The position numbers were made by a program, and so were the translations under genes. Source: an uncultured Candidatus Saccharibacteria bacterium (GTDB lineage Bacteria; Patescibacteriota; Doudnabacteria; UBA920). From it: DNA of 64,000 nt. A model generated the notes under the pieces. That model was not told the origin of the DNA and did not search any database. It saw nothing but the letters and a program-made list of their open reading frames with translations. The DNA is taken from positions 6,501 to 70,500 of the forward strand of contig CAZYQT010000004.1 of assembly GCA_964650255.1 (NCBI GenBank), in the 5' to 3' direction. Below are positions 5,864 through 62,927 of the stretch, piece by piece (the first letter of the stretch is position 1; each line of letters opens with the position of its first letter).

Positions 5864-7642
5864 ATGCCAAACCAACAATCTACAAACTCTGGCAATCTTA
5901 CCAACAAAAGACATTCCCTGGCGCATCTTCTCGCTAGCGCGCTTTTAGAAATGCAGCCGGAAACACAGCTTGGCATTGGTCCGGTTATTGATAATGGTTT
6001 TTATTACGATGTCATTACCCCCAAACCAATCACTCCGGACGATTTGCCGAAACTACAAAAACGTATGCAGGAATTGGCTAAGAGCAAACTCGGCTTTGAT
6101 CGCGAGGAAATGTCTTTTGAAGATGCCAAAAAGTTTTTTGAAGAACGCAAACAACCGTTTAAAGTTGAACTGATTTCCGATTTAGAAAAATCAGGTGAAG
6201 TGGATAACGTTAGCTTGTATAAAACTGGTAGTTTTGTGGACCTCTGCCGTGGTGGTCACGTTGAAAATACATCAGACATTGATCCGAACAGTTTCCAGTT
6301 AGATAAAATCGCTGGGGCTTATTGGCGCGGGGATGAAACCAAGCCTATGATGACCCGTATATACGGACTAGCCTTTAACAATGTTGATGAACTTGGCGGT
6401 TACTTAACCATGCGTGAGGAAGCTGAGAAGCGCGACCACAAAAAACTTGGACCGGAATTAGACTTGTTTTTATTCTCAGACTTAGTCGGTTCTGGATTAC
6501 CACTCTGGACACCGAAAGGGACCTTAGTACGAGACTTACTAGATAACTTTGTTTGGGAAATGCGCCAAGCGCGCGGTTACGAACGAGTTACTATTCCCCA
6601 CATCACCAAAAAAGATCTGTACGAAAAAAGTGGTCACTGGGACAAATTCAAAGATGAGTTGTTTCGCATTAAAACTCGTGAAGGCCATGAGTTTGCAATG
6701 AAGCCTATGAACTGTCCGCATCATACCCAAATATACAACCGCAAACGCTGGAGCTACCGCGAATTACCACAACGCTATGCCAACACCACCATGGTTTATA
6801 GAGATGAACAATCCGGAGAACTTGGCGGATTGAGCCGTGTGCGCAGCATCACCCAAGATGATGCTCATGTCTTTTGCCGAATGTCGCAGGCCAAAGAAGA
6901 AAGTAACACCATTTGGGATATTATTGAAACCCTATACAAAACTCTCGGATTTTCTGATTTAAAAGTGCGACTTTCTAAGCGTGACCCTGAGGCACCGGAA
7001 AAGTACCTTGGCAGCACCGAGTCCTGGGATTCAGCAGAAAAAACTCTACAAGAAGTAGCTGATAGCCGTGGAGTGGAGGTTATTGAAGGGATCGGTGAAG
7101 CAGCATTTTACGGACCAAAGTTAGACTTCATGGCAAAAGATGCCTTGGGCCGAGAACATCAAGTAGCTACAATTCAGTTAGACTTTAACCAGCCGGAACG
7201 ATTCGATTTATTCTGTATTAATGAGTCTGGCGAACAAGAACGCATCGTGATGATCCACGCAGCGATTATGGGTTCCTTGGAACGATTCTTGGCTGTTCTA
7301 ATTGAACACACAGCTGGTAATTTCCCAACTTGGCTCTCGCCTATTCAAACAGTTGTTGTGCCAGTTTCGGAAAAGCAAAATGATTACGCGCAAAGTGTGG
7401 TTGAAAAACTTAAAATGCAAATTCCTGATTTGCGCATCGAGCTTGATCTTCGCAGTGAATCTATGGGCAAACGAATTCGCGAAGCATCAAAACAAAAAGT
7501 ACCGTACATTTTGGTTGTTGGCGATAAAGAAATTGAAAGCCAAAGCGTTTCTGTGCGCGGCCGCGGTGATGAAGATTTAGGTACTCAACCGCTGGATGAT
7601 TTTGCTCAAAAATTAAAAATAGAAATTTCTGAAAAGCAATAA
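5864..7642 (+). CDS. thrS: threonyl-tRNA synthetase
   Basis: 592 aa. Class II aaRS core with a ThrRS-like catalytic region (RDHKKLGPELDLF, zinc-site region) and a C-terminal anticodon-binding domain. Lacks a long N-terminal TGS extension. Confidence 0.85.
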   Translation: MPNQQSTNSGNLTNKRHSLAHLLASALLEMQPETQLGIGPVIDNGFYYDVITPKPITPDDLPKLQKRMQELAKSKLGFDREEMSFEDAKKFFEERKQPFKVELISDLEKSGEVDNVSLYKTGSFVDLCRGGHVENTSDIDPNSFQLDKIAGAYWRGDETKPMMTRIYGLAFNNVDELGGYLTMREEAEKRDHKKLGPELDLFLFSDLVGSGLPLWTPKGTLVRDLLDNFVWEMRQARGYERVTIPHITKKDLYEKSGHWDKFKDELFRIKTREGHEFAMKPMNCPHHTQIYNRKRWSYRELPQRYANTTMVYRDEQSGELGGLSRVRSITQDDAHVFCRMSQAKEESNTIWDIIETLYKTLGFSDLKVRLSKRDPEAPEKYLGSTESWDSAEKTLQEVADSRGVEVIEGIGEAAFYGPKLDFMAKDALGREHQVATIQLDFNQPERFDLFCINESGEQERIVMIHAAIMGSLERFLAVLIEHTAGNFPTWLSPIQTVVVPVSEKQNDYAQSVVEKLKMQIPDLRIELDLRSESMGKRIREASKQKVPYILVVGDKEIESQSVSVRGRGDEDLGTQPLDDFAQKLKIEISEKQ

Positions 7643-7645
7643 CTA

Positions 7646-7670
7646 AAACCCCGCATATGCGGGGTTTTTA
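7646..7670. terminator. bidirectional rho-independent terminator (aaaaccccgcatatgcggggttttt)
   Basis: Perfect hairpin flanked by A-run and T-run, between convergent thrS and the 7680-8636 gene. Confidence 0.65.
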
Positions 7671-7679
7671 AATTGTTAA

Positions 7680-8636
7680 TTATTCACTTTGACCACTTCT
7701 ATATTCTACCGGGACAGCCTTACCTTGCGCATCTATAAACTTGCCCTTATCTAAGGGCAAAAGTCCTGTCTGGGCAGCCCATACAACTCCTACTATTACT
7801 AAAATCATTGCGATAGGCGCAAAGATCGCTAACCCTATCATCATGCTTCGACCTGTGTTTGGAACTTCAATGTCAGCCTTCAAAGTTTTAAATTGTTTGA
7901 ACAACACATAACTAAACGCAACATAAAATGGAGCGGTTGCAAGACTAACAAGATAATTTAAAATATCACCGGCACCATTGGCACCAGATGCGTCTAATAT
8001 TTTCGTAAAAATCGAAACAACGATTGAGACACCGATAGCAACAAGGATTAACACAATAATCCGACCGAACACTGGCCACCAATACCCTTTTACATATTCT
8101 TTGCTGGCCAATAGAGCGTTTAGACCTTGCTTATGATCGAGTAGTGCAAAATAAGTACTGAAAACCAAGAACACAGACATTATAATCCCTGGGATAACTA
8201 GCAAGGCAAAGGCACCAAAGGTTACCAAGCCCTGCAGGATTATGACGATGAATAGCGAACGGATAAATGCTTTAGATTTGTGCAAAGCTTTCTGCAAACC
8301 AACTTCGCCAGCAGGCAAATCATAAACAAATATTTGCGCGCCTTGGACCCAAATAGAATAGGCAATTACTGCGACTACAAACACCAAACCAATCAACACT
8401 GAAATAATTATTGTACCAGGATTAGTGGGGTCTTTTTGCAACCAATAACCTAGTCCAATAGCAACTAGCCCGGCAACAACCCAAACAGCAATATTCAACA
8501 GTTGCAATAAGAAAGAAGTCTTAAATCGGGAGGTGTATAAATCCCACGTATCTTTAAACAGGATGCCGACACCGGGTAATTTGCCTTCAAAAGCACTGAA
8601 TTGCCCATCTGAATTTTGGTTGTTTTCGTTGCTCAT
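7680..8636 (-). CDS. hypothetical polytopic membrane protein
   Basis: 318 aa with multiple hydrophobic helices. No recognisable family. Confidence 0.45.
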   Translation of the reverse strand: MSNENNQNSDGQFSAFEGKLPGVGILFKDTWDLYTSRFKTSFLLQLLNIAVWVVAGLVAIGLGYWLQKDPTNPGTIIISVLIGLVFVVAVIAYSIWVQGAQIFVYDLPAGEVGLQKALHKSKAFIRSLFIVIILQGLVTFGAFALLVIPGIIMSVFLVFSTYFALLDHKQGLNALLASKEYVKGYWWPVFGRIIVLILVAIGVSIVVSIFTKILDASGANGAGDILNYLVSLATAPFYVAFSYVLFKQFKTLKADIEVPNTGRSMMIGLAIFAPIAMILVIVGVVWAAQTGLLPLDKGKFIDAQGKAVPVEYRSGQSE

Positions 8637-25297: not shown

Positions 25298-25372
25298 GGC
25301 GCCATCGTCTAGTGGTTAGGACACATGGTTCTCATCCATGTAACCGGAGTTCGATTCTCCGTGGCGCTACCA
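25298..25372 (+). tRNA. tRNA-Glu (anticodon CUC), CCA encoded
   Basis: Cloverleaf built by hand: acceptor GGCGCCA/TGGCGCT (G1-U72), D-arm GTCT/GGAC, anticodon stem CATGG/CCATG with loop TTCTCAT, T-arm CGGAG-TTCGATT-CTCCG, discriminator A, CCA. Extended -10 (tgGTAGAAT) at 25265-25272. Confidence 0.85.
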
Positions 25373-25377
25373 AAAGA

Positions 25378-25397
25378 AAACCCCAGCTGGGGTTTTC
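25378..25397. terminator. bidirectional terminator shared by tRNA-Glu and the convergent mod-res-kinase operon
   Basis: aaaacccc-agct-ggggtttt hairpin with A/T runs on both sides. Confidence 0.6.
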
Positions 25398-25416
25398 TTT
25401 GATTGCTGTAAATGGA

Positions 25417-25608
25417 TTAGTTGGCTATCTGAATTTGACGAGCCTTTTCAATTATCTTTCTTTGATCTTTATTGGATTTCTTAATTACAACCTCAATAAT
25501 TCGCTTCTTTTTCGTTGAAGATAAGTCATGAGAAAAGACCGAGAACTTACTTTGCTTCAGTTCCTTTTTGGGTTTGATATCAAAAATGTAGCGAATTATT
25601 CTATTCAT
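25417..25608 (-). CDS. small highly basic protein (63 aa), translationally coupled (TAATG) to the upstream zeta-like kinase
   Basis: MNRIIRYIFDIKPKKELKQSKFSVFSHDLSSTKKKRIIEVVIKKSNKDQRKIIEKARQ. Its start codon overlaps the kinase stop. Ends at the shared terminator. Partly overlaps the tRNA 3' region on the opposite strand, so could be spurious. Confidence 0.35.
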   Translation of the reverse strand: MNRIIRYIFDIKPKKELKQSKFSVFSHDLSSTKKKRIIEVVIKKSNKDQRKIIEKARQIQIAN

Positions 25609-26324
25609 TACTTTAGAAGTTCATTTAAATCATCTTCATTATACTGTTCTCGGATGTGGTTGTCAATTTCATCAATATTTAGCTCGGTTTTGCCTATGTC
25701 TCCATTAGCATCTTTGATCACTAAGTTAAGGGTGATTTGCTCTCTAAATTCTTCCTTAATAGCAGAAACGGTTTGCTTAGAAGCAAAATAGGCAGAAATA
25801 AATACAGGTTTAGTAATATTCCTTCCTTCAACTAACTCACGAGCTTTGGTAAACTCCCATGACACACGTGGATCTTGATAAATAAAATAGATTTCAGCAA
25901 TACCTCTTGCCTCTATCACTTTCTTAATATTCTTTCTAGATATACCTTGATTGGCCATGGTTCCATCAAGTACAAAATTCTGTTGATTTTTTAATACCGC
26001 ATGGAAAATTTCATCAACTGCAATACTTACTGCATTTTGAAATAGCCACGCATTTTTACCCTCATAAAATGAAATTTCTTTTCTAATCTCATCTGCGTCA
26101 ATTCTAATAATCCTGCCATTAAACTCTTCAATCAAATTAATAGAAAATTCGGTCTTTCCCGCTCCAGGAGAACCGGCCATAAAAACCGAGGCTGGTTTTA
26201 AGTCAGCCGGGAAATCCTTGGAATCAGCATATTTAGCAATAAGATAATTCTTTTTTGCTCTGATTTCCTTGCTGGCAGCGGAGCTAATTTCTTCATCTGT
26301 CATTTGAGTTTTCTTAATTAGCAA
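25608..26324 (-). CDS. zeta-toxin-family P-loop kinase-like protein
   Basis: Walker A GSPGAGKT around residue 50. IIRIDADEIRKE resembles the zeta IIIDGDSFR catalytic Asp region. VLDGTMAN resembles the zeta LIIEGTLR. Third gene of the mod-res operon. Confidence 0.55.
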   Translation of the reverse strand: MLIKKTQMTDEEISSAASKEIRAKKNYLIAKYADSKDFPADLKPASVFMAGSPGAGKTEFSINLIEEFNGRIIRIDADEIRKEISFYEGKNAWLFQNAVSIAVDEIFHAVLKNQQNFVLDGTMANQGISRKNIKKVIEARGIAEIYFIYQDPRVSWEFTKARELVEGRNITKPVFISAYFASKQTVSAIKEEFREQITLNLVIKDANGDIGKTELNIDEIDNHIREQYNEDDLNELLK

Positions 26325-26395
26325 GATTCAATAATTACACTTTATGACAAATTATGCAAGTGCCTCATTCCAAAACAATAGTTAAATATATAGAA

Positions 26396-29080
26396 TTAGC
26401 GAAGAATTTTTTCATTAAAGGTTGATTCAAAATCATCCCGCAATTCCATATTCCCTTCATTGTAGAAGGGTAAACCAATCAAGCGAAAATCTTCATTTTC
26501 AATTTTTATATCTACACTATATCGGTTTTCTATTTCTAGAAGAAATTTTTCTTTCCAACCTTCCTTGGAATTATTAAACGTATCTTCAGAGTCTAAAAAC
26601 TGGTCTCCTTTGGGTTCAATAAAAATTTGATAAAAATTTTCTTTTTGCGATTTTATCTCTCTTAAAAAGAGAACGAAGTCTGGCGAGAAAGCCTGTCCAT
26701 CAGAAAAATTATAAATCTTAAAAAATTTTTCATTTCGAAATAGGATTATATCTTTAAACTTATTTTTTAACAAACTTATAGAGCTTTCAATAAAACGCAA
26801 TAGAGATTCCTCTTCACTAGTTCCCCAGATTTCATTTTGAGCAAACCAATCATGGGAAGAAAAGTCAAAATCTCGCATTTCTAAAGCTCTTGCACTTTCA
26901 CCGTCCAGGTTTAAGACTTTGTCATTTTCAAATACCTCTCGGATTAAATGTGCCTTAAATTCAGATGTCCCCGAGTATTCTTTTTTCTCCTTGCTTGCGT
27001 TTTCTAAGACCTTTCCAATAACAAACCCTGCAATGCTTAGCTTTTCGCTTTGTGATAACTGGTCCAGCTGTTCAGGGATGCCTTTTACCTTTACCTTGAC
27101 CCCTCCGAGATACTGCTCGTTCAATATAAAATCCTTGACTGATTCTAAATTCCCAAAGATTTTCTTTAGTTCATCAAATCTACCGGTAGTGATTTTTGCC
27201 AAAGCTGTTCGTAAAATATGGGCCTCAAAATCAGTAATTTTAAATTCTCTTATCTCAGTTTTGACTTTAATCCCTTTTCCCTCACCAGTCACAAATAGAT
27301 CCTTTTCTATTGCTTCTCTGGTTGGTAATTGAAAAATGTTCATTTCAGAATGATGGTCGTATCCTGCGTTAGCATCGGCAAGTGTGAAGACGTCGTCTCC
27401 TAGATTTTCTTTTCTAGAATTCAAAAAAATGTAGCCATTCTTCCACAACTCTGTTTCCTTAATCTCGCTTTTAACTTTAATTTCCTTCTCCACGGTTCGG
27501 GAAGATATGATTCCTTCCTTAATTAGTACACTTTCCAATTCTTGTATATAACGCGGATTAGTTACGCTATGATAGTAAAGCTGTTCCAAAATACGTAATT
27601 CATTCTGCGCGTCAGTATCAAACTTTCTTGTATAGGGATCAGTAAATTCGCCAACCGTGAATGGGTAATAGCGCGCACCACGGCCAATCAGCTGAGCCTC
27701 CTGTACTGTAGTTTTACCCGGTTTATTATTGGCAGCATCCCGACTATTATAAAGCCTTACAATATCAAAAAGATTTAAAACGTCCCAGCCTTCATTTAAT
27801 TTTTCAGTCGCAAAAATAGCACGAACTTCATTACTGGATTCTTCTAAGGAGTTAAGTAATATCTGCTTTTGCTCTAAGTCTTTATCATCATCCACCGTTA
27901 AACAGTGTTCAGGTGCAAAGTCATGTTTAATTTCTTCCACTAAATCCTTTAGTGTTATTTTATGCTGATCGAAAAATAGAAAGGCTTTTTGCAAAGTTTC
28001 ATCTTGTATATTTGATTGTTGCTCTAATAATTTTTTATTTAACCCTTCAATGAAGGAATGGAATACTGTTTTGAACTCGCTCGAAACAACTATCTGAGGA
28101 TTGTCATTTGTTCGTTCATCTCTCTGTTTTGGCGAAGTTACTCTATTCGCTTTAAACATAATGACCGGCTTAAGCGCAATCTTATACTTCTCAGCTATTT
28201 TCCGACGATATTGAGAAATAATAACAGCTGAAAGCACGCGTTCCATCATTGGAGCATTAATTTGCAAGGTTCGTACATCTTTTGAAAATCCATCTAAACG
28301 GTACTCTTTAAGATCATAACGATAGATAGCTTTATCCTGGTATTTCTCTAAAATTTCTGGGTATTCTTGCTCTAGCCTAGCGGTTGCTGTGAATTCTAAA
28401 AGTACATTTTCATTTGCACTATTAGCATTCAAAATGCGCATAACCGTATTTTCCCAGTTACTTCGATCTTCTTCTTCAGTTTTGCTTAGTCGGCTATTAG
28501 TCTCAGCTGACAAATTATGCGCTTCATCTGCCATTAAAACAATTTTCTTGTCAGCAAAATCTTCATACGTCAGTACATTTTCGCGTGCTAAAGTAAATCG
28601 AGAATGCAGAAGCGCGGTGGTTGAAAAAATAATATTAATGTCATCATCATTCACCGCTTCGAAGTTTTCTACTTCTTTTATCTTTATTTCCTTAGTCCCT
28701 AAAATAATTTTATCGGCAAATAAATACTTTTGAGAATTAGAATCGGTGAAATTAGTCTTGGTTTTTTGGATGATATTTCCAAGTCTAGTAAAAAAAATAA
28801 AATTACGGAACCCTTGTTCATATAAATACAAAATATTAGCGGCCATTATTAATGTTTTACCTGAACCAGTAGCCATATTAAACATCAAATGAATAGGTTT
28901 TTGTTTTTGATGATAATCCTCGTAATAATAATAGAACCTACCCAATGCTTCTTTTTGATATTCACGCAATGAAAATGCTGGATTAAGATTGTTCAAAATA
29001 TCAATCCTTTCCATTGTCTTGTCCTTAAAAACATCCGCTCCCGCAAAATCTTTGAGAACGTTAAACTTTTCGTACAGCAT
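26396..29080 (-). CDS. res: type III restriction endonuclease Res subunit (SF2 helicase, DEAH)
   Basis: 894 aa. Motif I GSGKT, motif II MADEAH, helicase C-terminal motifs. Immediately downstream of mod. Confidence 0.85.
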   Translation of the reverse strand: MLYEKFNVLKDFAGADVFKDKTMERIDILNNLNPAFSLREYQKEALGRFYYYYEDYHQKQKPIHLMFNMATGSGKTLIMAANILYLYEQGFRNFIFFTRLGNIIQKTKTNFTDSNSQKYLFADKIILGTKEIKIKEVENFEAVNDDDINIIFSTTALLHSRFTLARENVLTYEDFADKKIVLMADEAHNLSAETNSRLSKTEEEDRSNWENTVMRILNANSANENVLLEFTATARLEQEYPEILEKYQDKAIYRYDLKEYRLDGFSKDVRTLQINAPMMERVLSAVIISQYRRKIAEKYKIALKPVIMFKANRVTSPKQRDERTNDNPQIVVSSEFKTVFHSFIEGLNKKLLEQQSNIQDETLQKAFLFFDQHKITLKDLVEEIKHDFAPEHCLTVDDDKDLEQKQILLNSLEESSNEVRAIFATEKLNEGWDVLNLFDIVRLYNSRDAANNKPGKTTVQEAQLIGRGARYYPFTVGEFTDPYTRKFDTDAQNELRILEQLYYHSVTNPRYIQELESVLIKEGIISSRTVEKEIKVKSEIKETELWKNGYIFLNSRKENLGDDVFTLADANAGYDHHSEMNIFQLPTREAIEKDLFVTGEGKGIKVKTEIREFKITDFEAHILRTALAKITTGRFDELKKIFGNLESVKDFILNEQYLGGVKVKVKGIPEQLDQLSQSEKLSIAGFVIGKVLENASKEKKEYSGTSEFKAHLIREVFENDKVLNLDGESARALEMRDFDFSSHDWFAQNEIWGTSEEESLLRFIESSISLLKNKFKDIILFRNEKFFKIYNFSDGQAFSPDFVLFLREIKSQKENFYQIFIEPKGDQFLDSEDTFNNSKEGWKEKFLLEIENRYSVDIKIENEDFRLIGLPFYNEGNMELRDDFESTFNEKILR

Positions 29081-29082
29081 AT

Positions 29083-30831
29083 TTATTTTCTACTATAAAA
29101 ATCCTGATTAAGCGCTTTATCATCTTTGCTTACTCTATATTCTTTATCATCAATTTCGCTTAGATTGACGTAAAGCTGGTTTTTATCCAAACACTCCATC
29201 AGAAACTTCTTTTTATTTTCCAAACTAAGTTGGATAAAATCCTTAATATTCGCATCAATTGTTTTTGGTTTTATTTTAAAACTTAAAAAGGCACTTTCTT
29301 TCATTGAATGCCAAAATTCTAAAAGTTCTTTATCATTTTTAGCTTTCTGTATTTTTTCTACCCACTCATCATTCCATTTTGCAAGTTCCATATAGATAAA
29401 ATCACCGCCACCATTCCATTGAACTAAGCTAGAAATTCCTTCTTGCTCTCCTTGAACCACAGAGTTCAGTCTATTTTTTAAAATTTCTATTTGCTCATCA
29501 ATTTGTTCGAGTGTTATATATTGCCTGCCCATTTTGTGCGACACTGCTGCAGTCGTACCGCTGCCAGAAAAAAAATCTAGCACAATATCACCCTCATCAG
29601 TCGCAGAATTAATAATTCTTCTTAGTAAACCCTCGGGTTTCTGTGTCCTGAAATCCAAAAACTCATTGGAACCACTAATCAGTGGTTTTGTTATGTCATG
29701 GTCCCAGACATCTCTAACATAAACTTCTGAAAAATATCTATTAAATAGCTTATCCTTGTACCTATCAGGGACTGCTTGGTTATTTTTTATACTATCTGAA
29801 ATTACTTTACGGTCTTTTTCAGAAAGTTGAGATAGATCTGGAGCGGTAACCTGAGTGTCTATAAAGGGTTTTTCATACTTTACTACTTCTTTTTCTGGAT
29901 TAAATTTATAATTTTCAGTTTTACTATAAATAAAAATATTGTCATGCTTCTTAGGCCACGCCCCTTTACCCACACCTTGAATACGGTATCCCCAAATAAC
30001 TTCATTAACAAAATTGTCTCTACCTAATACTTCATCACATAACACTTTAAAATAATGTGCCTCGTTGTAATCTAAATGAATATAGATAAGTCCTGTTGAA
30101 GACAACAACTCTCTAGCAATTTTTAAACGATCTTTTATAAATGTAAGCCAAGAAGAATGGTTAAATCTATCATTATATTTAAAGGAATCCTTTTCCGTAT
30201 TAAATGGTGGATCAATGTATATTAATTGAATTTTCCCACCGAATTCTTTTTTAAGCGAAGCAAGTGCGAGAAGATTATTACCTTTAATAATTAAATTGTC
30301 AGTGATTATACCTTTTTCATTGCGGTTAAAGCCAACTAATTTATTCTCCCCGTTTTTATCTATGCGTTTGAAATTAGTAAAGACCTTTGGATCAAACAAA
30401 CTATTAATATCATCAGAAGCTAATGTTTCATTATAAAAAATTTCATCGCGTTTTTGGTCTTCCTTAGTCATTCCGCCTTCTAGAACACAATCCTTGTATG
30501 GCCAAGCTAAAACTACTTCATTATTTTCGCTTAAATAATTGTTACCGCTAATAAGGCCGATTTTATTTTTAAAAGCAGTATAGGAATCTGGTAAAAATTG
30601 CTTATTCGACACAAAGCTAATAAACTTCTCTTTATCAAAAATTAGTGTTTTTTCTACTTCAAAAAAGAAATTCTGCTTTATGGCTTTATCGGAAAGTAAA
30701 AGTTTAATCAGGTCTGCATCGTTCTTGCGTGCCAATTCTTGTATTTGGTTTTTCAATAACACTCCGTCCTGAGAAACAAGACGCTCATCGCTTTTCAGTA
30801 AACCTGTAACTTGCTCAAAAATATTATTCAT
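29083..30831 (-). CDS. mod: type III R-M Mod subunit, N6-adenine/N4-cytosine DNA methyltransferase
   Basis: 582 aa. Catalytic IYIDPPFNT (DPPF/Y) motif and AdoMet motif FFSGSGTTAAV. 2-nt gap to res. Confidence 0.85.
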   Translation of the reverse strand: MNNIFEQVTGLLKSDERLVSQDGVLLKNQIQELARKNDADLIKLLLSDKAIKQNFFFEVEKTLIFDKEKFISFVSNKQFLPDSYTAFKNKIGLISGNNYLSENNEVVLAWPYKDCVLEGGMTKEDQKRDEIFYNETLASDDINSLFDPKVFTNFKRIDKNGENKLVGFNRNEKGIITDNLIIKGNNLLALASLKKEFGGKIQLIYIDPPFNTEKDSFKYNDRFNHSSWLTFIKDRLKIARELLSSTGLIYIHLDYNEAHYFKVLCDEVLGRDNFVNEVIWGYRIQGVGKGAWPKKHDNIFIYSKTENYKFNPEKEVVKYEKPFIDTQVTAPDLSQLSEKDRKVISDSIKNNQAVPDRYKDKLFNRYFSEVYVRDVWDHDITKPLISGSNEFLDFRTQKPEGLLRRIINSATDEGDIVLDFFSGSGTTAAVSHKMGRQYITLEQIDEQIEILKNRLNSVVQGEQEGISSLVQWNGGGDFIYMELAKWNDEWVEKIQKAKNDKELLEFWHSMKESAFLSFKIKPKTIDANIKDFIQLSLENKKKFLMECLDKNQLYVNLSEIDDKEYRVSKDDKALNQDFYSRK

Positions 30832-30936
30832 AATTTTACTCTAAATATACTTAATAATAACATTTCTTCATGTGTTGGTAAATCCTTCATAAACAAGCAA
30901 AAGCACCTATCCTATCAGTGATGCTATAATCAACCT

Positions 30937-31356
30937 ATGAACATCTACCTCGACATCGATGGAGTGCTCCTGACAGATTCCCTATCTGACCGTGGCAATC
31001 CTACCCCGCACTCCCTGGAGCTCCTCAATACGATTACTGACCACCACACAGTCTATTGGCTCACTACCCACTGCCATGGCGGGGAAAATCGCGCTCCCGA
31101 ACTTCTCTACCCAAAATTCCCTCCTGAAGCCAAAGCTTACATAGACAAAATCTTGCCTACAGATTGGGGTACTTGGAAAACTGATGCCATCGATTTTTCC
31201 GAAGACTTCCTCTGGCTCGACGATGACGTCTACGGAACAGAATACACAGCCCTAGCCAAACACAACTGTTCAGAAAAACTCATAAAAATTAATCTACAAG
31301 AGAATCCGGAGCAGTTGAAAGATATTATTCAAAAATTAACAGATAAAAATATATGA
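30937..31356 (+). CDS. HAD-superfamily phosphatase-like protein, compositionally atypical (GC-rich, C-ending codons)
   Basis: Motif I LDIDGVLL, motif II WLTT, motif IV LWLDDD. The first roughly 300 nt are visibly richer in G+C than the flanking genes. Confidence 0.45.
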   Translation: MNIYLDIDGVLLTDSLSDRGNPTPHSLELLNTITDHHTVYWLTTHCHGGENRAPELLYPKFPPEAKAYIDKILPTDWGTWKTDAIDFSEDFLWLDDDVYGTEYTALAKHNCSEKLIKINLQENPEQLKDIIQKLTDKNI

Positions 31357-31544
31357 AATGGTTAAAAGAGAATTGGTTTAAAATAGCTATTTTGCTCTCA
31401 GTGCTACTTATATTCTTTAGTTGGTTATATGTGGCAAAAATAAAACCATCGAATATTCGTAAATTTTGTTTTAATATAGCTAAGGAAAATCCCTACGGTT
31501 ACAACTATAAAGAATGTATTATTAGTTACGGGTTAACCCAATAA
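31353..31544 (+). CDS. small membrane protein (1 TM), hypothetical
   Basis: 63 aa. ATGA overlap with the HAD-like gene. Hydrophobic segment IAILLSVLLIFFSWLYV. Confidence 0.3.
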   Translation: MKWLKENWFKIAILLSVLLIFFSWLYVAKIKPSNIRKFCFNIAKENPYGYNYKECIISYGLTQ

Positions 31545-31762
31545 TATCATGTCCAATAAATAGAACACCACCATAGGTTTGAGCCTTGGAATGATCCTGC
31601 TTGGATTGCTTATTGCTGCTATAGCTGTAATTGTAGCTGTGGCGATAAAAAGCTTCGTGAATGGTTTAAAAAACCATACTGTCTCGAAAAAAATATTAAT
31701 GAGAAAAGTGTTGCTCAAATAGTCAAAGATTATCTATTAACACAACAATCCTGGTTATAGCA

Positions 31763-32305
31763 TTATTTCTCAATACCCAGGGCTATGTATAAACTGGAAT
31801 ACACTAAGCCTTCATAGAATTGGCATGACATGTACTCTGGGTCTTCTTTAGTTGCTTTTTGATACCAATCCCACGATGCCATTGGATCGGAAACTATTGG
31901 CATCGTCGTAACTTTATAGCCAAGCTGAATAATTTTCTCAATGATTGGTTTTAAAAGGTTGAGATTATCTCCAATTATTTCAATTACTATATTCTTCTTA
32001 TCTGCGATTGCCGTGCTTACCACATACTCACCTGCAAAGGATAAATAGGCTGACATTTTTGGATCTTCAGCATCGAATAGCTTATTCATCTCGAGAACTA
32101 TATCGCCACCATCAAAATGTACGTAACCTGTCGGGAACTCTTGACGACGAGCAGTAGTTTTTCCAGCGGCTGGACCACCGGACACAATTACAAACTGCGG
32201 ATGGTCTTCGGTCCTACCCCGTTCACAAAACTGTTCTACTAGTTCAAGAATTTTCAGCGTAGCATCGGTCTCAAATTGTACTATTTTTGGCTGTGATTCT
32301 GACAT
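31763..32305 (-). CDS. second zeta-toxin-like P-loop kinase (short form)
   Basis: Walker A SGGPAAGKTT. VHFDGGDIVLE matches the Asp-containing catalytic segment. IEIIGDNL matches the zeta-like third motif. 180 aa. Confidence 0.45.
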   Translation of the reverse strand: MSESQPKIVQFETDATLKILELVEQFCERGRTEDHPQFVIVSGGPAAGKTTARRQEFPTGYVHFDGGDIVLEMNKLFDAEDPKMSAYLSFAGEYVVSTAIADKKNIVIEIIGDNLNLLKPIIEKIIQLGYKVTTMPIVSDPMASWDWYQKATKEDPEYMSCQFYEGLVYSSLYIALGIEK

Positions 32306-32591
32306 ATATATTAATTATATCTTAATCCCGCTTATCTGTAACCTAAAACGAAAAATTGCTCCGCTTAGTACCCCACCCTAATAATAAAAAACTTTTTCAA
32401 AAAAGGGTCTCCCCCCTTCGGGTTGCAATTTTACTGAGCTACCGTCAGTAACGTCAGTTCTTTTCTAACTTGCTGCCATAATCATGGCAATAATGCCTCT
32501 CCAATGCTTGATTTCCTGAATAAGGGGGTTGTAATTCTCTTTCATGAAGACTACCAGCCGGCCCTTGGGCCGGTTTTGCTATAATACTAAT

Positions 32592-32867
32592 ATGACTATC
32601 CCCCAACTTTTTATAATCTTTATTGCAATACTAAATCTTGTTTCATTCATCCTGGTATATATTGATAAGCAAAAAAGCATTACTCACAGCGAACGATTGC
32701 CAGAAGTGGATTTCTTCGTTTGGGGAATCTTCTTTTCTTCATTTGGTGTACTAGCGGGGATGTTTGTATTTCATCATAAAACCCAAAAGCTAAACTTTGT
32801 TTTTGGTATTGGACTGTTATTACTCCAGCAAATTGCTTTGGCATACTTGATTATAAATCAGTTCTAA
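32592..32867 (+). CDS. DUF1294-family small membrane protein
   Basis: MTIPQLFIIFIAILNLVSFILVYIDKQKS...FHHKTQK matches the DUF1294 pattern. ORF-track start at 32544 would include an upstream hairpin (agccggccc..gggccggtttt) and a TATAAT, so the internal ATG is preferred. Confidence 0.45.
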   Translation: MTIPQLFIIFIAILNLVSFILVYIDKQKSITHSERLPEVDFFVWGIFFSSFGVLAGMFVFHHKTQKLNFVFGIGLLLLQQIALAYLIINQF

Positions 32868-33177: not shown

Positions 33178-33477
33178 ATGATATTAGTCCACGATATTTT
33201 TGTCTGCAAGCCAGGCAATGCTTCAAAATTAGCCAAACTGTTCAAAGAAATTATGACTAAGGATACCAATCCAGAGCTAGTCAACATTTTGACCGACATG
33301 ACTGGCCAATACAATCGCGTTATTATGGTATCCCAGTACGACAGCTTGGCCGCCTACGAGGAGGCTTTCAAAAAATACATGAACCCTACCCCTGAAATGC
33401 AGGAAGCCATGAAAAAAATGGATGGTTACACAGACCTATATTTATCTGGGAGCCGGGAAATATATAAAATTTGGTAA
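33178..33477 (+). CDS. small alpha/beta protein, hypothetical (possibly Dabb/NIPSNAP-like)
   Basis: 99 aa. Promoter-like TTGCAA...TGTATAAT upstream at about 33128-33160. Family assignment is weak. Confidence 0.35.
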   Translation: MILVHDIFVCKPGNASKLAKLFKEIMTKDTNPELVNILTDMTGQYNRVIMVSQYDSLAAYEEAFKKYMNPTPEMQEAMKKMDGYTDLYLSGSREIYKIW

Positions 33478-62585: not shown

Positions 62586-62927
62586 ATGAACAAGAAAAAA
62601 ACTGGGGATAAAACCCAAACCACTTACCCACGCCCTAAATGGGTGCCGCAAACCGTCTCCCAAGAGGAAGAGCTTTGCCCAGATTGCTTCAAAGTTGTTG
62701 GCGAAAGAAGTCGATATAAGCTAGTGTGTATGCTCGGAAAGACCAAAACCGGCATGACCGTTGGTGAATTGACTGAGAAAATGAATTTGCGACAGCCTAC
62801 TGTCACCCACCACCTGCAAACTTTGCAATCTGTGCAGGCCGTCCATAGCGAACAGCGCGGTCGGGAGCGAATCTACACCCTCAACCGCAAGGCGCACTGT
62901 TTTGAGGAATGCAACATCCCATATTAA
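62586..62927 (+). CDS. ArsR/SmtB-family metalloregulator
   Basis: Winged HTH (RYKLVCMLGKTKTGMTVGELTEKMNLRQPTVTHHLQTLQ). N-terminal CPDC and C-terminal Cys/His residues. Confidence 0.65.
   Translation: MNKKKTGDKTQTTYPRPKWVPQTVSQEEELCPDCFKVVGERSRYKLVCMLGKTKTGMTVGELTEKMNLRQPTVTHHLQTLQSVQAVHSEQRGRERIYTLNRKAHCFEECNIPY

Follow-up and report, generated by a model that had tools for sequence, protein, structure and literature searches.

The question raised by positions 30937-32305 of the window, by which we mean the whole 64,000-nucleotide stretch of Saccharibacteria DNA that was analyzed, is whether a small phosphatase and a small kinase encoded there belong together. The phosphatase gene, called HAD here after the fold of its 139-residue product, occupies 30937-31356 on the plus strand, and the gene for a 180-residue zeta-like kinase, called zeta2, occupies 31763-32305 on the minus strand. 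The original prediction was that a kinase next to a phosphatase forms an opposing toxin/antidote or nucleotide-modification pair and that the HAD gene was acquired recently by horizontal transfer. We compared the segment with about 130 related loci, which are labeled with L-numbers in what follows. The comparison makes it probable, in our judgment, that a mobile element has left a decaying fragment at 30937 to ~32560 and that HAD and the kinase are independent cargo of it, not a dedicated pair.

The collinear contigs reveal what such an element contains. In L008 and L009, where HAD is 87% identical to that of the window, an operon runs from an FtsK/SpoIIIE-like ATPase (294 residues) through HAD and a 63-residue open reading frame (ORF) to the start of a further ORF at the contig end; the FtsK stop overlaps the HAD start, and the last ORF start aligns to the 109-residue HNH gene of L010. 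The L010 contig, whose kinase is 79% identical to zeta2, contains the end of FtsK, HAD, the 63-residue ORF, and the HNH gene, converging on the kinase. Collinearity between the window and L010 extends exactly from the HAD ATG (30937) to ~32556; upstream of 30937 the identity is 37%, which is random, while at the other end homology fades near a hairpin at 32558-32573. Compared with L008-L010, the window lacks the FtsK gene, and its HNH gene carries a 118-nt deletion; therefore, 30937 to ~32560 is best described as the stump of a mobile element. The intact element, of a Saccharibacteria/Patescibacteria type, would comprise an FtsK/SpoIIIE-like DNA-translocase ATPase, HAD, the 63-residue membrane protein, and an HNH endonuclease, converging on a small zeta-like kinase. 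In the window, the translocase gene would be gone and half of HNH deleted, with HAD, the 63-residue ORF, and the kinase left intact under selection. A 23.7-kb Logan contig (SRR8893623) and an ENA contig encode the exact HAD protein.

The two genes do converge, the kinase facing both HAD and the 63-residue membrane ORF, but they are not directly adjacent as had been proposed, since two features lie between them. The first (31353-31544, plus strand) is the 63-residue ORF, which encodes an N-terminal membrane helix and whose start overlaps the HAD stop (ATGA). It is conserved in L008, L009, and L010, is absent from 80 more distant HAD loci, and had no match in Pfam or PHROG. The second (31549-31760, plus strand) is an HNH endonuclease pseudogene, recognized by its alignment with the intact L010 gene, the product of which matches HNH endonuclease PHROGs. 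In the pseudogene, the ATG and four codons are followed by a stop, the 118-nt deletion takes the N-terminal half, and the C-terminal 66 codons are open but out of frame. These codons share ~88% identity with the intact gene, and the deletion appears to be recent. Beyond zeta2, the right-hand end of the remnant (32306-32560, minus strand) contains a conserved noncoding stretch and what is left of a truncated upstream gene, its last ~30 codons, which end in ...KENYNPLIQEIKHWRGIIAMIMAAS and a stop codon.

Decay of the surrounding element raises the possibility that HAD and the kinase are themselves nonfunctional relics kept by chance. The loss of FtsK and the deletion in HNH fit this explanation, as does the loss from zeta2 of an arginine that is 94% conserved in its family. 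However, neither reading frame is broken, no catalytic motif is missing, and promoter-like sites precede both genes. Relative to L010, the ratio of nonsynonymous to synonymous divergence (dN/dS) is 0.058 for HAD, 0.112 for the 63-residue ORF, and 0.116 for the kinase. Because the ratios of 0.06 and 0.12 for HAD and the kinase were obtained over a dS above 1, we find the relic explanation scarcely credible; judged by these ratios, HAD, the 63-residue ORF, and zeta2 are kept by purifying selection. The divergence is also mosaic, with a dS of only 0.235 in the 63-residue ORF against 1.2-1.4 in HAD and in the kinase, and nucleotide identity to L010 is 90-100% across 31303-31722 versus ~80% in the flanking 5' part of HAD and in the kinase. 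We therefore conclude that related elements have recombined with each other.

Whether HAD and the kinase form a pair can be read from how often the two families occur together. In species-representative genomes searched by tblastn, none of 80 HAD loci had a zeta2-like gene within 8 kb, nor a gene like zeta1, the kinase of the neighboring restriction-modification (R-M) operon. Conversely, HAD was present in one of the 48 zeta2-family loci other than the window, and that one is L010, the sister element. The closest genomic relatives of HAD (L013-L015, 78-84% identity) are without the kinase. The genes that do lie near HAD include translocases and helicases (ResIII/DEAD, 7; FtsK_SpoIIIE, 6; FtsK_gamma, 5; DUF87/HerA, 5; TrwB, 3), DUF2779 (6), a convergent PLD-like nuclease of ~165 residues (11 loci), and NYN, HD, and methylase genes. 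The HAD family is widespread in Patescibacteria, in variable mobile and defense neighborhoods (FtsK/HerA/TrwB, ResIII, PLD, NYN, HD).

The commonest single neighbor of the HAD family is the gene for a protein of ~165 residues that converges on the HAD homologue, as seen in L024, L027, L030, L033, L034, L039, L047, L050, L057, L069, L075, L080, and L086. PLDc_2 accounts for 11 downstream neighbors of HAD, and its assignment to the ~165-residue gene was made by size and position, not locus by locus.

These counts bear directly on the pair that had been predicted. As an enzymatic toxin-antidote system, the kinase would phosphorylate an essential metabolite (e.g., UDP-N-acetylglucosamine, UDP-GlcNAc) and HAD would remove the phosphate, which would stabilize the element and explain why these genes survive. 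Such a system is consistent with the zeta/PezT fold of zeta2, in which the Walker A, Asp, and Glu residues are kept, with the lack of a protein antitoxin gene upstream of zeta2, and with the linkage of HAD and kinase in both known copies, intact under purifying selection where FtsK and HNH are lost. An analogous phosphatase adjacency, with His_Phos_1, is seen in L127, L128, and L135 (with HD as well in L128). However, 47 of the 48 other kinase loci lack HAD, all 80 HAD loci lack a zeta-like kinase, and L013-L015, the closest relatives of HAD, have none. In the window, HAD and zeta2 are convergent, have separate predicted promoters, and are separated by two other genes; the gene to which HAD is translationally coupled in intact elements is FtsK, not the kinase. 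Moreover, zeta/PezT toxins that lack a cognate antitoxin have been described before (PMC10532202). We consider a toxin-antidote pair unlikely on these grounds, and the co-occurrence counts speak also against the other form in which the pair had been proposed, that of a modification pair.

Several observations weigh against independent cargo. The tblastn screen that found a zeta-like gene in 0 of 80 loci could miss very distant P-loop kinases near HAD, and a Cytidylate_kin2-family gene lies upstream of HAD in three loci. In L052, a 149-residue P-loop protein (7476-7925) with a Walker A resembling that of polynucleotide kinase (PNK) and AAA_33 (GLPGSGKST) is encoded directly upstream of the HAD homologue. 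HAD and the kinase are both intact while FtsK and HNH have decayed, and they are linked in both known copies (the window and L010), as an addiction pair would also give. A histidine phosphatase (His_Phos_1) adjoins the family kinase in L127, L128, and L135, and in L128 it is part of a tight operon (149-1664) that reads His_Phos_1, zeta2-family kinase, HD gene, with gaps of 5 and 8 nt and with the kinase between two phosphohydrolases; therefore, kinase-phosphohydrolase coupling exists somewhere in the family. The element is known from short metagenomic contigs alone, in which no integrase, attachment (att) sites, or complete copy was seen, and the biochemical roles of both families are inferred from fold and context alone. 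The broader idea that the small zeta-fold kinases of this family are unrecognized restriction-associated effectors, with a toxicity that is restrained by no protein-binding antitoxin but by interchangeable phosphohydrolases (HAD here; His phosphatase and HD in L127, L128, and L135) that reverse the phosphorylation, strikes us as a long shot.

The mobile-element origin of the segment, which agrees with the island and the horizontal acquisition of the original prediction, is supported by the collinearity with FtsK- and HNH-bearing contigs. The label "mobile element" is based on this collinearity together with gene content, patchy distribution, tRNA adjacency, and composition. No convincing att-like direct repeats of the tRNA-Glu 3' end were found around the island (25.4-32.6 kb), and no recombinase or integrase was found among the ORFs listed for 24-36 kb.

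The sequence and predicted structure of the HAD cargo hint at what it might do. The four HAD motifs (DIDGV, WLTT, WKT, and LDDD) are all invariant or nearly so among 47 homologues: in motif I (DxDx[TV]), the nucleophile D6 is invariant and D8, the general acid two residues on, is found in at least 90%; motif II is T43/T44; K81 of motif III is invariant; and D95/D96 of motif IV are found in at least 90%. The AlphaFold model, with a predicted local distance difference test score (pLDDT) of 95.5, has the Rossmannoid HAD core fold, and its top Foldseek matches are HAD proteins (probability 0.95-1.0, E 9e-3 or worse, query-normalized TM-score [TMq] at most 0.59). Although weak, the matches point consistently to capless HADs: GmhB, the SCP/FCP1 C-terminal domain (CTD) phosphatases, and phage PseT. 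Among viral structures, the weak fold matches include the phosphatase domains of PseT and PNKP. From the motifs and the model, the protein is predicted to be a catalytically complete, capless phosphatase with an Asp nucleophile. We suggest that HAD serves the element by dephosphorylating a bulky substrate, for which nucleotides or the 3'-phosphate ends of nucleic acids are the likeliest candidates.

By sequence, the HAD protein has 1,676 homologues at E≤1e-3, and those with names come mostly from Patescibacteria (Saccharibacteria, Staskawiczbacteria, Komeilibacteria, Uhrbacteria, and others). The nearest Pfam family is HAD_SAK_2 (PF18143), which aligns over profile positions 2-69 with 18.7 bits (E 0.0024), below the gathering threshold of 27.5 bits; 33 of 47 relatives have it as their best Pfam match, at E≤0.05 and also below threshold, the lowest E being 9.7e-6. 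The protein is a genuine HAD-superfamily member that falls outside every curated Pfam family. A sequence search of the PDB gave no significant match, tblastn against INPHARED phages and PLSDB plasmids gave none, and PADLOC and NCBIfam had no match for HAD, the 63-residue ORF, or zeta2. Homologues with 37-40% identity are present on four predicted viral contigs in IMG/VR (L138-L141).

The second zeta-like kinase, with its three motifs, had been correctly recognized at 31763-32305 on the minus strand, and Pfam, profile comparison, the alignment with zeta1, and the fold all agree. The motifs are GGPAAGKTT (Walker A), VHFDGGD, and IVIEIIGDNL. Residues 32-146 match Pfam Zeta_toxin (PF06414) with 25.5 bits (E 1e-5), a narrow pass over the 22.3-bit threshold, and PF06414 is also present in the precomputed annotation of zeta2. 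Zeta1 and zeta2 share 22% identity (pairwise E 3e-6) in an alignment that takes in Walker A, the acidic motif, and the strand of Walker B. A profile of the nine closest relatives of zeta2 matches PezT (E 3.7e-4), and this alignment equates GGxAAGKTT, hFD, and IVIEIIG of zeta2 with the GAGKTT, IID, and LIEG segments of PezT, so that K48, D64, and E108 (initiator Met uncounted; K49, D65, and E109 with Met) are placed at those segments. The PezT Asp aligned to that of zeta2 is, we assume, the catalytic D66 (D66/D67 of PezT/zeta). All 36 members of the zeta2 family that were aligned keep the Walker A Lys and the Glu, and they have either D or E at the Asp position. In the AlphaFold model of zeta2 (pLDDT 83.9), the top eight Foldseek matches in the PDB are zeta/PezT (3q8x, 1gvn, 2p5t) with E from 3e-5 to 1.5e-4 and TMq of 0.54-0.58; lower matches include Pnkp1 and the T4/Clostridium PNK kinase domains (ranks 9, 18, and 21) and nucleotide kinases.

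Zeta2 departs from its own family at two positions, R147W and H148Y (Met counted), where Arg is found in 34 of 36 members and His in 32 of 36 (...EAYKRHLKAVEED...). The sister kinase of L010 likewise has Trp and Tyr/Phe at these Arg-His positions. The lost Arg could not be mapped to the catalytic arginines, R158 of zeta or R157 of PezT, because it lies just past the point at which the profile alignment to PezT ends. With this near-invariant Arg-His pair lost, the zeta2 clade may be attenuated or respecialized. The zeta2/L010 clade also shows further changes in the C-terminal helix, with four other conserved C-terminal positions altered. We hypothesize that zeta2 phosphorylates the hydroxyl of a small molecule or nucleotide sugar, as zeta does, possibly with attenuated activity in this clade.

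The family to which zeta2 belongs gave 9 matches in an indexed search and 45 loci in metagenome and viral scans, while a profile search retrieved 674 cluster representatives at E≤1e-3. One relative is located on a 56-kb uncultivated viral genome, L137. For zeta2 itself, tblastn against INPHARED phages and PLSDB plasmids gave no match, and PHROGs returned a generic ATPase match and nothing else. No cognate antitoxin gene was found upstream of zeta2, where there is a promoter-like site and the truncated gene end but no intact ORF, and no conserved upstream partner or antitoxin was seen across the 48 zeta2-family loci.

The folds of the two proteins also permit a different kind of cooperation, a split Pnkp-like end-healing system in which the kinase would act on 5'-OH ends and HAD on 3'-phosphates, and together they would mend breaks that ribotoxins or the HNH nuclease of the element make in RNA or DNA. 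The nearest Pfam family of HAD, HAD_SAK_2, comes from RNA-repair proteins, phage PseT and PNKP phosphatase domains are among its viral fold matches, Pnkp1 and the T4/Clostridium PNK kinase domains are among the fold matches of zeta2, and L052 has its PNK-like P-loop gene just upstream of HAD. However, the best sequence and fold matches of zeta2 are to zeta/PezT and not PNK, the HAD_SAK_2 match is below the gathering threshold (18.7 vs 27.5 bits), and the neighborhood contains neither a ligase nor Hen1 nor any other repair partner. The families also show no general co-occurrence, and we hold this system to be very unlikely. The genes are convergent, unfused, and not conserved as a pair. The 516 ORFs neighboring HAD include four small proteins with an N-terminal Walker A, of which two are FtsK-like, one is the PNK-like protein of L052, and one is guanylate-kinase-like. 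L052 is the sole split-Pnkp-like arrangement among 75 loci.

What the zeta2 family does keep company with are defense and mobile genes: Mod-Res, GmrSD, MutH-like, DpnII, OLD, HEPN_AbiV, Fic, and resolvases. Often, restriction genes precede the kinase, which is co-oriented with them and comes last, as in Mod-Res-kinase(-kinase) operons (L095 74-5948; L096 439-6546), DUF2779-GmrSD-kinase (L125 1796-6561), a C5-methyltransferase and MutH-like nuclease followed by the kinase (L006 55-2739), PDDEXK-DpnII-kinase (L093 3483-6750), and an OLD-like ATPase followed by the kinase (L098 2275-6582). In L106, GmrSD/SLFN is near the kinase. Tandem pairs of family kinases occur in L094, L095, L098, L099, and L123. 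Zeta2 is an orphan member of a small zeta/PezT-fold family that is usually found in defense islands, often last in restriction operons, and without a conserved antitoxin.

This distribution raises the possibility of another role for zeta2, that of an accessory or backup effector of the neighboring R-M system, serving in abortive infection or as an addiction module, with HAD as unrelated cargo. In L095, L096, L125, L006, L093, and L098, family kinases are the co-oriented last genes, the R-M operon of the window itself ends in a zeta-family kinase, and there is a precedent in PezAT attached to Hachiman (PMC13064477). In the window, however, zeta2 lies 1.4 kb past the other end of the R-M operon under its own predicted promoter, and by collinearity it belongs to the FtsK-HAD element and not to the R-M cassette. 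We strongly doubt, for these reasons, that zeta2 is an effector of this R-M system.

The kinase at the end of the R-M operon, zeta1 (25608-26324, minus strand), is a canonical member of the zeta-toxin family (Pfam Zeta_toxin, 5.6e-34), and its family is large and typical (2,161 matches). Downstream of the zeta1 kinase, an overlapping ORF of 58-66 residues is found every time: in the window (25417-26324, minus strand), where the partner has 63 residues (25417-25608, minus strand), and in L143 (8001-8887), L145 (7001-7989), and L147 (7001-7881). The setting of this cassette varies from a type III R-M system in the window to a type ISP enzyme in L143 and a free-standing position after ribosomal genes in L145 and L147. 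From this arrangement, zeta1 and the small ORF look like a portable toxin plus downstream-antitoxin module. As zeta1 has a conserved partner ORF of its own, it has no need for HAD.

The composition of HAD bears on its origin, as the original prediction had taken the GC-rich first 300 nt with their C-ending codons as a sign of recent horizontal acquisition. The composition itself was confirmed by windowed statistics. The first 300 nt have a GC content of 0.507, a third-position GC (GC3) of 0.57, and a third-position C (C3) of 0.44. The GC mean of the window is 0.408 (standard deviation 0.040), and just 0.2% of 300-nt windows reach the GC content of this region. Over 1,275 windows of 100 codons, C3 is 0.196 ± 0.055, and the four highest values are all in the HAD gene, which also has the highest C3 among the 62 ORFs of at least 90 residues. 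The zeta2 gene has an ordinary composition (GC 0.40). Two other short genes have raised C3 (0.30-0.31), one zinc-ribbon/HTH-like (62586-62927, plus strand) and one NIPSNAP-like (33178-33477, plus strand); HAD is more extreme.

While the composition of HAD is foreign to the present host, the claim that it arrived recently did not hold up as well. The C-rich 5' part has a GC content of 0.50-0.51 in L008 and L010 too, at a dS of 1.2-1.4 to the sister copies, and raised GC and GC3 are also found in the next-closest genomic relatives, L013-L015, which have different hosts. Since the C-rich usage was kept in the sister copies despite saturated synonymous sites, a recent acquisition is doubtful. The codon usage predates the split between this element and its sister. 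It does not match the present host, and we take it for an old trait of the sub-lineage of the gene, not for the trace of a very recent transfer.

Two other explanations for the bias were examined and rejected. A GC-rich 5' part is not a trait of the whole HAD family, as the mean difference from the flanks was +0.002 (p 0.69, 76 loci), and the feature is confined to the closest clade. Translational selection in the host was rejected because the genes for ribosomal proteins L10 and L7/L12 have average or low C3, and the HAD bias is therefore not the high-expression signature of the host. In a nucleotide alignment of six sequences, the 5' region of HAD varies at third positions in the ordinary way and shows no embedded DNA or RNA element that is conserved.

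Consensus matches provide predicted promoter sites for both genes. An extended -10 box of the TGnTATAAT type, TGCTATAAT, is located at 30922-30930 (plus strand). The HAD ATG follows 6 nt downstream, and the box falls within junction sequence that stands where related elements have the FtsK gene. The identical 9-mer occurs at 32577-32585, again 6 nt before an ATG, which is likely the true start codon of the DUF1294 gene (MTIPQLF). The first box is likely a promoter for a leaderless HAD transcript, and the pattern suggests that leaderless transcription is used in this genome. In that case, formation of the junction would have given HAD its TGnTATAAT promoter of the leaderless type. For zeta2, a promoter-like site, GTTACA-17-TATAAT (32314-32342, minus strand), is found 8 nt upstream of the ATG; it is the best sigma-70-like match in 30700-32700 (10/12 positions), and the region is conserved in L010.

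To the left of the remnant lies a low-GC cassette of 5.4 kb (25417-30831, minus strand; GC 0.32-0.35; Pfam and PADLOC) that contains the type III R-M genes mod (29083-30831, minus strand) and res (26396-29080, minus strand), zeta1, and its 63-residue partner ORF. Mod and HAD are divergent neighbors. A tRNA-Glu(CTC) gene (25298-25372, plus strand) was identified with Rfam, a scan that found nothing else. Together with a perfect 14+14 palindrome, it forms the left edge of the low-GC island (25298-25400, plus strand). The palindrome itself (25373-25400; AAAGAAAACCCCAG/CTGGGGTTTTCTTT) is directly 3' of the tRNA gene, coincides with the left edge of the island, and is probably the tRNA-Glu terminator. 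The remnant lies next to this cassette, in what is probably a tRNA-Glu hotspot.

Both proteins were also compared with known systems. Like the epsilon-zeta/PezAT kinases (UDP-GlcNAc 3'-kinases, PF06414), zeta2 has the P-loop fold, the aligned Walker A, Asp, and Glu residues, a narrow pass in Pfam, and carriage on a mobile element. It differs from them in its size (180 residues vs ~250-290, with a shorter C-terminal part), its low profile similarity to PezT (E 3.7e-4), and the W/Y at the R-H position of its family, and it has neither an upstream antitoxin of the epsilon/PezA type nor a bicistronic toxin-antitoxin operon. A 2023 survey of PezAT that described orphan pezT/zeta homologues took in proteins covering 80% or more of the Pfam profile at E≤1e-10 (PMC10532202). 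Zeta2 resembles those orphans as a zeta-family kinase without a cognate PezA/epsilon, chromosomal and in mobile DNA, but with E 1e-5 and partial coverage it fails the survey cutoffs and lies outside the surveyed set. In Pez-Ham, PezAT is fused to a Hachiman defense operon and the PezA antitoxin is kept (PMC13064477). Attachment of a zeta-family module to a defense system is shared by zeta1 here and by the zeta2 relatives in L095, L096, L125, and L006; unlike Pez-Ham, which keeps PezA, zeta2 is outside the R-M operon.

With the HAD_SAK_2 proteins (PF18143, the "Swiss Army Knife" of RNA repair) and T4-type Pnkp/PseT, the HAD protein shares a small capless HAD domain of the DxDGV type and a nucleic-acid or conflict context. 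It differs in scoring below threshold, in being a stand-alone protein of 139 residues unfused to kinase or ligase modules, and in having no repair partners nearby. The SCP/FCP1 CTD phosphatases and GmhB, which act on large substrates, are its best PDB fold matches and have the same four motifs and no cap, but the matches are all weak (E 9e-3 or worse) at 10-18% identity. A literature search on zeta toxins in type III R-M operons, HAD_SAK_2, and FtsK elements of Saccharibacteria found nothing directly relevant besides PMC10532202 and PMC13064477.

Read as a remnant with independent cargo, the locus is a worked example of how a hotspot of defense and mobile DNA is assembled and decays in the genome of an ultra-small Patescibacteria member: an R-M cassette with a zeta module of its own landed against the stump of an FtsK-HAD-HNH element. 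The pairing of HAD with the kinase would matter only if experiments overturned the comparative evidence; if the reversible kinase/phosphohydrolase reading were true, it would reveal an enzymatically reversible toxin-antidote logic in the mobile elements of Patescibacteria. Two by-products of the analysis are a HAD family of ~135 residues, with 1,676 homologues, a catalytically complete active site by prediction, and no above-threshold Pfam family, and a small zeta-like kinase family that is repeatedly the last gene in restriction operons. Both families are under-described and may be worth a systematic census. If either has a role in defense or anti-defense, it would extend the range of conflict systems known from uncultured lineages.

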